NCBI GenBank assembly: GCA_014728035.1
Contig: WJMJ01000079.1
Location: 32,001-96,000, forward strand
Origin: Promethearchaeota archaeon
Lineage (GTDB): Archaea; Asgardarchaeota; Thorarchaeia; Thorarchaeales; Thorarchaeaceae
DNA: 64,000 bases
Direction of reading: 5' to 3'
The translations under genes were made by a program, and so were the position numbers. The notes below the pieces were generated by a model that made no database searches, had not been told where the DNA came from, and saw nothing but the letters and a program-made list of their open reading frames with translations. Shown here one piece after another: positions 516-7,747 of the stretch. The first letter of the stretch is position 1; each line of letters starts with the position of its first letter.

Positions 516-748
516 TTGTATAACCTCTTTTATGATAGAGGAATCTAACAAATTGACGATGGCACATCTTTTAAAGTTTTATGACCATAGAATAGTCGAG
601 TTATCAAGTAATCTCCAATTACACCGTCAACTGTAGAATTCTTGTATGAGCTAATATCATTGAATATGTTGTACTGGTTAATTGATATTTTTAGCTAATT
701 GATTGTGGATAGCTAACACTTATAGAGATATGATTCCATACTATACAT

Positions 749-963
749 GGACGCACGGATGATCCCGTTGCTCTTCATATCGTTCAATGAATGATATGAC
801 CGATTTGCAGAAGTCTATGTGAATGTCCTGGATGGAGATTTACCTCTCACCTGATGGTTCAGAGAAGGATGGCAGCAAGTTGGTAACGAGCCTTTACGTT
901 CATAATGAGGGTGGACCTCAAGTCCATAAATGGACTACCAAGTTTGTGGGATTGCCTGCGTCC
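749..963 (+). ncRNA. candidate structured non-coding RNA (~215 nt), family unknown
   Basis: Terminal helix GGACGCA(749-755)/TGCGTCC(957-963), GATCCC/GGGATT, an 11-bp hairpin at 775-799, and a multibranch closed by TTGGTA/TACCAA. TATA-like TTATAG at ~720-725 and a T-tract directly downstream. No ORF. Confidence 0.6.
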
Positions 964-1032
964 TCTTTTTGTTGAAATGCAATTTCTAAAAAATGATATA
1001 TGATGCACCGAAAATACAGTGCATCGTTTCTT

Positions 1033-6589: not shown

Positions 6590-7747
6590 ATGAATATTAT
6601 CAGAAAACAAAAGAAAGGATTTGGTTCAATAAATCAAGTCAAAAAAAGATTCCAACAGGACAGAAAGGAACGTGACTTATCTTTTGATGTTGGTCGTATG
6701 CCTCGTGATATTCTGGAGAAAATGTTAGTTATTTGTGGCCGAGTTGGGAAAGATAATAGCGACATTTATAGGAAAAAGGCCAAAGCATTAGGTGCAGACT
6801 TTTTAGTTGAAGATTCTGGGTCATGGGTTTTTACTCATAGAACTATCCGTGATAATTATCAACCTGACTTTCATGAAGGTGTCTTACTTATTGGAACCGC
6901 AAAAGAACTACCGTCTACAAGAATTGGTTATCAAGACTCGTATGCATTTACAGACTGGTTTCTTCAAGATATAGAAGGTGATGGTCTACCTGATATCCCG
7001 ATAGGTCGTGTATATGGTCCATCTGAAACCGTCCTTTTCCATATGGATCCGACAATAATTGATAGTGATATTGCAGTTGTTTTTGACTCAGAACCAGGTA
7101 GGTCTATGCGTCACGTGGAAGGTCTAGCTGCGCTTGGATTTGATGTTGAGGTGCTTGAAAGATTTCATGATGACGATAATGAACTCATGGGTGCTAGTGA
7201 ATTCATACTACAATTTTCGGATGGAATGTATACAAAACGAATTCATGGCACACCAGACCGATGGGCATCTCATAATTCAGTAATATTGTCGCATACTCAA
7301 GCAGAGAGTATTGTCTTCAAAGGATATCCTGTGATATTCTCAGAGGCTTGTAGTACTGCCCAGGAGGGACCTTTACTTAGTGCCTTTCTTAATGGTGGTG
7401 CATGTTACATTGGATCCACTCTCGACACCATGAATAACATCGACGAGTATGATGACTGGAAAGATTGTCCTTATGCGGATGGGTGGAAATTTGGATTCTT
7501 GGACTTGTTAGACTCTTATGATCTAATTGGTCAAGTCAAAACACAGGTTGATAGAGAACTATTTTCTAGACTATCTCAGCCTGCAAAGTTACAAATTGAA
7601 GCAATTCGAAGAAGTGATTCCCATGAAATCACCGATGACACTGCTTTATCTGTTGTTGAGTGGGTGTTATATGGAAATCCTCTACGTCGTACAACTGTTG
7701 GTCCGGATGCAGATTATACACCGGGTAGGCTATTAGTTGACACTTAA
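6590..7747 (+). CDS. Peptidase C25 (gingipain)-like, caspase-fold cysteine protease
   Basis: DGLPDIPIGRV, HG...W, PVIFSEAC, GACYIGS, LYGNP. Start moved to ATG 6590 (ORF track 6518). Confidence 0.65.
   Translation: MNIIRKQKKGFGSINQVKKRFQQDRKERDLSFDVGRMPRDILEKMLVICGRVGKDNSDIYRKKAKALGADFLVEDSGSWVFTHRTIRDNYQPDFHEGVLLIGTAKELPSTRIGYQDSYAFTDWFLQDIEGDGLPDIPIGRVYGPSETVLFHMDPTIIDSDIAVVFDSEPGRSMRHVEGLAALGFDVEVLERFHDDDNELMGASEFILQFSDGMYTKRIHGTPDRWASHNSVILSHTQAESIVFKGYPVIFSEACSTAQEGPLLSAFLNGGACYIGSTLDTMNNIDEYDDWKDCPYADGWKFGFLDLLDSYDLIGQVKTQVDRELFSRLSQPAKLQIEAIRRSDSHEITDDTALSVVEWVLYGNPLRRTTVGPDADYTPGRLLVDT

Follow-up and report, generated by a model that had tools for sequence, protein, structure and literature searches.

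A probable structured non-coding RNA gene from one family of the Thorarchaeota

The + strand of positions 749-963 in the window (a 64,000-nt stretch of a contig from a thorarchaeal genome) very probably constitutes a real non-coding RNA gene. It is best explained, at roughly even confidence, as a free-standing gene for a stable, structured RNA that acts in trans and belongs to a new RNA family whose range is a single family of Thorarchaeota. The initial annotation, made from the letters alone, had described an unannotated, highly structured RNA gene of ~215 nt in this position, a description borne out by folding statistics, homologues, covariation and the lack of a match in Rfam.

The gene lies within a 480-nt spacer (552-1032) between two genes that, as had been noted at the outset, are both encoded on the - strand. 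One neighbour is ino1 (myo-inositol-1-phosphate synthase), the 5' part of which occupies 3-551. On the other side, 1033-2193 holds a 4Fe-4S/CCG-domain gene, beyond which comes a gene for a FAD-linked oxidase. The RNA forms a G+C island in the spacer, with 47% G+C relative to ~30% in the flanks and 39.5% in the genome as a whole. The stop codon of the CCG-domain gene, which is on the - strand, is followed immediately by a perfect 9-bp hairpin (GATGCAC..GTGCATC, 1002-1025); this is probably the terminator of that gene, because a T-run comes after the hairpin on the - strand.

The 215 nt of the + strand (749-963) fold with a predicted energy of -87.2 kcal/mol, corresponding to z = -6.0, and none of 200 shuffled sequences folds as well. 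The z-score comparison with shuffles had been named as a check in the initial annotation, and the + strand passes it clearly; the - strand of the same region gives z = -1.9. The elements assigned to the gene and its immediate flanks are as follows, with pairing given as the share of alignment cells that form pairs.

719-725, + strand: TATA-like box CTTATAG, centred ~27 nt upstream of position 749, with purine-rich BRE-like bases just upstream
736-741, + strand: putative promoter-proximal element CCATAC, conserved among aligned upstream sequences; its consensus in the family is GCATA, at about -15 to -10
749-963, + strand: the RNA, 215 nt, delimited by folding z and by full-length covariance-model matches, one per genome
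749-755 (GGACGCA) with 957-963 (TGCGTCC), + strand: helix P1, 90% of cells paired
757-767 (GG, TGATCCCG) with 947-956 (TGGGATTG, CC), + strand: helices P1b and P2, 10 of 10 pairs changed on both sides
770-773 (GCTC) with 888-891 (GAGC), + strand: helix P3, which closes the 5' domain; 95.9% of cells paired, the variants being G-U or compensated
776-798, + strand: hairpin P4, variable in sequence; all pairs covary and are among the top mutual-information pairs
799-816 (ACCGATTTGC, GTCT) with 867-884, + strand: long stem P5, two-sided changes in 14 of 14 pairs, including the highest mutual-information pairs
819-843, + strand: hairpin P6, CGAAU-G-UCC...GGA-G-AUUCG, 97% of cells paired, with an invariant G-G mismatch
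844-864, + strand: hairpin P7, CUCUCACC...GGUUCAGAG with a small internal loop that is conserved; no other block of the family is conserved more strongly
892-905, + strand: single-stranded junction with conserved (C)ACGUUCA at 896-902 and, after it, an A-rich linker that varies in length
906-920, + strand: hairpin P8, UGAGG-GUGGA-CCUCA, 84% of cells paired, GGGUGGACC nearly invariant
921-936, + strand: hairpin P9, variable in sequence, 96% of cells paired, two-sided changes in 5 of 5 pairs
937-946, + strand: single-stranded junction, conserved ACCAAG(UC)
964-973, + strand: pyrimidine-/U-rich stretch directly after P1, a putative terminator, conserved across the 27 inspected loci

The consensus fold consists of nine helices and four junctions organised on a terminal rod, P1-P2, that is built from the exact 5' and 3' ends of the RNA. 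P2 closes a four-way junction, one arm of which begins with P3; this helix in turn closes a three-way junction bearing the variable hairpin P4 and the long stem P5. A further three-way junction, closed by P5, ends in P6 and P7. The remaining arms of the four-way junction, P8 and P9, are flanked by the conserved single strands ACGUUCA and ACCAAG, and in genera g5 and g14 P8 is replaced by other sequence. Conservation of the letters themselves is concentrated in the first five pairs of P1, in P3, in P6 with its G-G mismatch, in P7, in GGGUGGACC of P8 and in the two single strands. The first five pairs of P1 (GGACG/CGUCC) are almost invariant, and what few changes occur at pairs 3, 4 and 5 are matched by compensating ones.

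Comparative support for this fold comes from 56 distinct homologues, among which 89.0% of cells in the consensus structure form standard pairs, a value inflated because the alignments were fitted to a covariance model. The corresponding controls gave 71.5% for shuffled columns and 35-45% when partners were slid by 1-3 columns. Changes on both sides were found in 58 of the 70 proposed base pairs. Mutual information computed blind to the structure returned proposed pairs at the top of the ranking, with Watson-Crick or wobble fractions of 0.8-1.0; together with the slid control, this result argues against an artefact of model fitting. The same analysis gave no sign of a pseudoknot or tertiary pair supported by covariation, and by-eye inspection detected no conserved K-turn, T-loop or GNRA-receptor motif.

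All of the complementary segments listed in the initial annotation are present in the sequence, and most correspond to helices of the consensus. GGACGCA/TGCGTCC and GATCCC/GGGATT, now P1 and P2, are supported by the 56 homologues, as are the hairpin at 775-799 (P4), ACC/GGT (the inner part of P7), TGAGG/CCTCA (P8) and GTCCA/TGGAC (P9). Three segments fared differently. TTGGTA/TACCAA, the suggested closing helix of a cloverleaf-like junction, forms pairs in 44.6% of cells, which does not improve on shuffles, and TTGGTA belongs instead to P5 (799-808 with 875-884). ACG/CGT is paired in ~39% of cells, likewise no better than in shuffles, and GTTGC/GCAGC is not conserved, being displaced by P3 (GCTC 770-773/GAGC 888-891) and P5. 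Failure of these three pairings also undoes the tRNA-like domain that had been suggested from them.

Several alternative pairings within the RNA were considered and set aside. When homologues were compared by eye, a local hairpin GAGC/GUUC proved less consistent than the long-range P3 pairing GCUC/GAGC, and pairing of ACGUUC with GAAUGU of P6 was broken in divergent homologues. No conserved partner for ACGUUCA (896-902) was found in the consensus or by mutual information. The P8 segment GGGUGGAC (906-920) is complementary to the 3' end of the RNA itself, GUCCACCU (960-967), at 8 of 8 positions in 31 of the 56 sequences. This pairing was rejected: it lacks covariation, genus g8 alters P1 and leaves P8 as it is, genus g3 carries an uncompensated C at an A position, and genus g5 has no P8 motif, yet keeps the ACC tail.

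The strand of the gene is indicated by several features that point the same way. G-U combinations account for 8.9% of paired cells and A-C combinations for 3.2% (2.8 to 1), in agreement with the earlier use of a G-U-only asymmetry as a sign of orientation. This asymmetry, the folding z and the direction of the TATA-like box and U-tract assign the RNA to the + strand.

The TATA-like box and the T-tract pointed out at the outset are also real, and both are conserved in all 27 homologous loci inspected. In almost all of them CTTAT(G/A) follows purines and lies 25-31 nt before the first G, with a few minor variants. In archaeal promoters the start site lies about 26-27 nt beyond the TATA box. Since the conserved box stands at this usual spacing, transcription is predicted to start at G749; the CCATAC/GCATA sequence between the two, which likewise recurs in almost all of the loci, may be a second promoter element. 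At the other end, most homologues carry ACC and then a U-rich run, represented by UCUUUUU in this genome. This run would act as a terminator of archaeal type, so that transcription would end at ~966-973 and the ends of the primary transcript would pair to form P1. A comparable box precedes the 5' ends of this genome's genes for RNase P and SRP RNA by ~30 nt.

The sequence occurs once in the source genome, and the nhmmer search that had been suggested as a check, run alongside BLAST, recovered full-length relatives in sister genera. A first covariance model, seeded with this sequence and that of its congener and with a structure derived by hand, gave exactly one match per genome in 43 of 86 genomes of the family. 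A second model (R2), built from 35 aligned homologues, gave one match per genome in 24 of 26 and 33 of 39 sampled genomes of the Thorarchaeota family. The RNA was thus found, always as a single copy, in 15 of the 16 genera of this family. The sequence described here scores 198.5 bits against R2 (E = 1e-52, model positions 1-222; P1 GGACG/CGUCC, P6 and P7 motifs required), a match that holds by construction because the sequence is part of the seed of the model.

Outside the family, R2 found no match in the single genome of the sister family or in 125 genomes from 26 other Asgard families. A motif scan of the GTDB representative genomes returned 36 stretches, of which the covariance model confirmed 31, all from archaeal MAGs labelled mostly as Thorarchaeota and in a few cases as Promethearchaeota, Hermodarchaeota or uncultured archaeon. 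The five bacterial pattern matches were unconfirmed by the model and are put down to chance. A metagenome scan added 19 further genomic homologues, among which no transcript-like contig was seen.

The exceptional genus, g10, gave no match in any of its four genomes, even with lax filters. In two of these genomes only ~45-90 nt separate the CCG-domain gene from the promoter region of ino1; since the two nearly abut, the RNA gene is cleanly absent. It follows from this absence that the RNA gene is not essential. The ino1 protein tree does not separate loss of the RNA in g10 from branching of g10 before the RNA arose.

Comparison with known RNAs yielded no identity. At the gathering score no Rfam 15 family matches the window, and at E<=10 on 600-1100 none matches the RNA itself; the sole two matches (E 5.5 and 7.4) are at chance level and fall outside it, in the hairpin region 987-1041. 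The novelty proposed at the outset, for which an Rfam search had been named as the check, therefore stands, and with ARAGORN reporting no tRNA or tmRNA in the window, so does the earlier failure to match the RNA to SRP, RNase P, tRNA or a riboswitch. A literature search that included a recent preprint on prokaryotic non-coding sequence retrieved no description of this RNA.

Individual classes were rejected on specific grounds. The locus gives no match to the SRP RNA model RF01857, with its helices 5, 6 and 8 and conserved helix-8 loops, and the SRP RNA of the genome is encoded on contig C25 (89.5 bits, E = 1.6e-20). RNase P RNA (RF00373 and other Rfam types), its CR-I/CR-V P4 core included, is likewise unmatched here, with the real gene on contig C151 (159.7 bits). 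For Y RNA there is no Rfam match and the genome, which is 98% complete, lacks a TROVE (Ro) domain. C/D-box or H/ACA guide identity is contradicted by a consensus without conserved C (RUGAUGA), D (CUGA) or ACA boxes, and again by the lack of an Rfam match. A riboswitch or cis-regulatory leader would require a gene on the same strand downstream; the two neighbours are encoded on the other strand, both here and in homologous loci, and the U-tract follows the RNA directly.

The closest analogues in design are nevertheless the archaeal SRP (7S) and RNase P RNAs, RF01857 and RF00373. Each is a stable structured RNA of 200-330 nt from a single-copy, free-standing gene, with a TATA-like box ~30 nt before the mature 5' end, 5' and 3' ends paired in a terminal stem, and conserved unpaired nucleotides among covarying helices. 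Unlike those RNAs, the one described here is confined to one family and missing from one of its genera, so that it is not universal, and it has no motif in common with the RNase P and SRP RNAs of its own genome. The bacterial raiA motif RNA, OLE and ROOL/GOLLD are of the same general type: stand-alone, multi-junction, covarying RNAs with conserved junction nucleotides and a narrow distribution. In contrast to them, this RNA is archaeal and matches none of their Rfam models in sequence or structure; it is also smaller than OLE, ROOL and GOLLD, and is without a phage link or a defined protein partner.

Elsewhere in the assembly, ARAGORN called ~19 tRNA genes within ~14 kb of one contig, as well as tRNA-Pyl and tRNA-SeC. 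As the assembly has an estimated contamination of 8.5%, the tRNA array may be viral in origin or sit on a foreign contig. A separate stretch of 360 nt on contig C26 (~6755-7114) folds very strongly on both strands (~-0.42 kcal/mol per nt), which indicates that it is probably a long inverted repeat.

Within the reading of a stable RNA acting in trans, a tentative proposal, favoured somewhat short of even odds, is that the molecule serves as the scaffold or core of a ribonucleoprotein. Freely covarying helices would form a scaffold that positions elements of fixed sequence (the first five pairs of P1, the P6 G-G mismatch, the P7 internal loop, the two single strands and the P8 loop), so that these could engage one protein or several, or make tertiary contacts. 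Bound partners are suggested by the way in which invariant internal loops and single strands adjoin stems that covary freely. Covarying stems beside loops, junction strands and a terminal helix of fixed sequence are seen in RNase P and SRP RNA, which work as ribonucleoprotein cores or as folded units of catalysis or recognition, and not in antisense regulators. The conserved single strands considered by themselves fit a base-pairing regulator just as well.

Such a regulator, using ACGUUCA (896-902), ACCAAGUC (937-944) or the P8 loop as seeds for mRNAs in trans, is the strongest of the competing explanations, and still an unlikely one. It would explain why the unpaired stretches with the strongest conservation lack a conserved partner within the RNA. 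In this genome, moreover, UGAACG at the start codon of ino1 is complementary to CGUUCA. The match to ino1 is gone in many genomes that keep ACGUUCA, for example where the ino1 start reads AUGCAUAC or AUGGAUGAC, and antisense pairing at this site was rejected as not conserved. Nine helices and four junctions also far exceed what known small RNAs need to present a seed.

A bolder reading, to which a low probability is attached, sees a new class of large functional RNA peculiar to one lineage of Asgard archaea. The RNA would be a ribozyme, or else the core, for catalysis or recognition, of a novel ribonucleoprotein, in which the invariant junction nucleotides would form the active or binding site; its role would then exceed that of a scaffold or an ordinary regulator. 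Also of low probability is a ribozyme or ligand-binding RNA with an active site or pocket made of the invariant junction and internal-loop nucleotides. In its favour are the large size of the RNA, its several junctions and the concentration of conserved nucleotides in these and in internal loops, a pattern typical of RNase P RNA, of large ribozymes of other kinds and of riboswitch aptamers. Against a ribozyme or ligand-binding function, no ribozyme or riboswitch model shows similarity at E<=10, covariation backs no pseudoknot or tertiary pair, genus g10 dispenses with the RNA altogether, and the RNA does not precede a gene on its own strand.

Genomic context raises a further alternative of similarly low probability, in which the RNA is functionally tied to ino1, co-regulated with it from a shared divergent promoter and involved in inositol/lipid metabolism or in ino1 transcription. 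In ~20 of 24 loci, spread over at least 14 genera, ino1 is the divergent upstream neighbour at a distance of 110-320 nt. Downstream, 23 of the 24 loci have the CCG-domain gene in convergent orientation, and both neighbours in homologous loci stand on the strand opposite to the RNA, as they do here; no other protein gene travels with the RNA in the loci compared. Between the divergent TATA boxes of ino1 and the RNA lies a conserved palindrome-like sequence that looks like a transcription-factor operator. In the - strand sense (568-596 of the window), ACTATTCTATGG(T)CATA stands directly upstream of the TATA-like box of ino1 (ACTTTAAAAG, ~568-576); the element is a full palindrome, CTATTCTAT..ATAGAATAG, in several genera and a half-site (584-596) here.

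These features make a functional tie to ino1 possible and leave it weak, since genus g10 retains ino1, the operator-like element and the CCG-domain neighbour without the RNA, and in a few genomes the RNA stands apart from ino1. Synteny inside one family is weak evidence, and family-wide synteny alone could account for the neighbourhood; in addition, no base pairing with the ino1 leader is conserved. In genome L075 of genus g5 (G020:C1), ORFs of 229 and 257 aa, of unassigned family, replace ino1 upstream of the RNA, which points to a local rearrangement.

Resemblance to the acceptor end of tRNA underlies a much less credible alternative, in which P1, together with a 3' NCC tail, would pass for an acceptor stem and so become a target of tRNA enzymes for processing or tagging. 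Like that end, the RNA has a 7-bp terminal helix of almost invariant sequence, followed in most homologues by N-C-C (ACC or CCC). The tail is variable, however, reading UCU here and CCA in others. There is no cloverleaf or anticodon arm, nor a T-arm before the 3' acceptor-like strand, and ARAGORN is negative. The cloverleaf-like junction is not conserved, its closing helix pairing no better in the homologues than in shuffles, so that the tRNA-mimic domain entertained in the initial annotation is not upheld. Furthermore, none of the 47 ARAGORN-predicted tRNAs of the genome starts with GGACG, and with the predicted start coinciding with G749 there would be no leader for RNase P to remove. No other RNA with the P1-plus-tail design was found in the genome, and the P8 motif is not enriched elsewhere in it.

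Least probable of all is the absence of any + strand RNA gene, with the region acting as a - strand leader or riboswitch of ino1 or as a DNA-level element: the region does occupy a place suited to a - strand leader, with the CCG-domain gene on one side and ino1 on the other, and its helices are partly self-complementary on both strands, as the - strand z reflects, but folding, the G-U to A-C ratio and the direction of the TATA box and U-tract all favour the + strand, the CCG-domain gene ends in its own terminator-like hairpin, and ino1 has a TATA-like box of its own.

The locus is, then, an uncatalogued RNA gene that defines a new RNA family, in a domain of life from which, to our knowledge, few free-standing structured RNAs of more than 200 nt have been described beyond rRNA, RNase P RNA and SRP RNA. 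Its restriction to one family limits its bearing on the origin of eukaryotes. Its hosts belong to the Asgard archaea, to which eukaryotes are more closely related than to any other known group and in which RNA biology has hardly been explored. The RNA is strongly supported by comparison, folds in a complex way and follows a clean phylogenetic pattern, with a single copy in 15 of 16 genera and gain or loss of the whole unit. These traits make it a clear target for Rfam curation, for structure probing and for partner finding by phylogenetic profiling.
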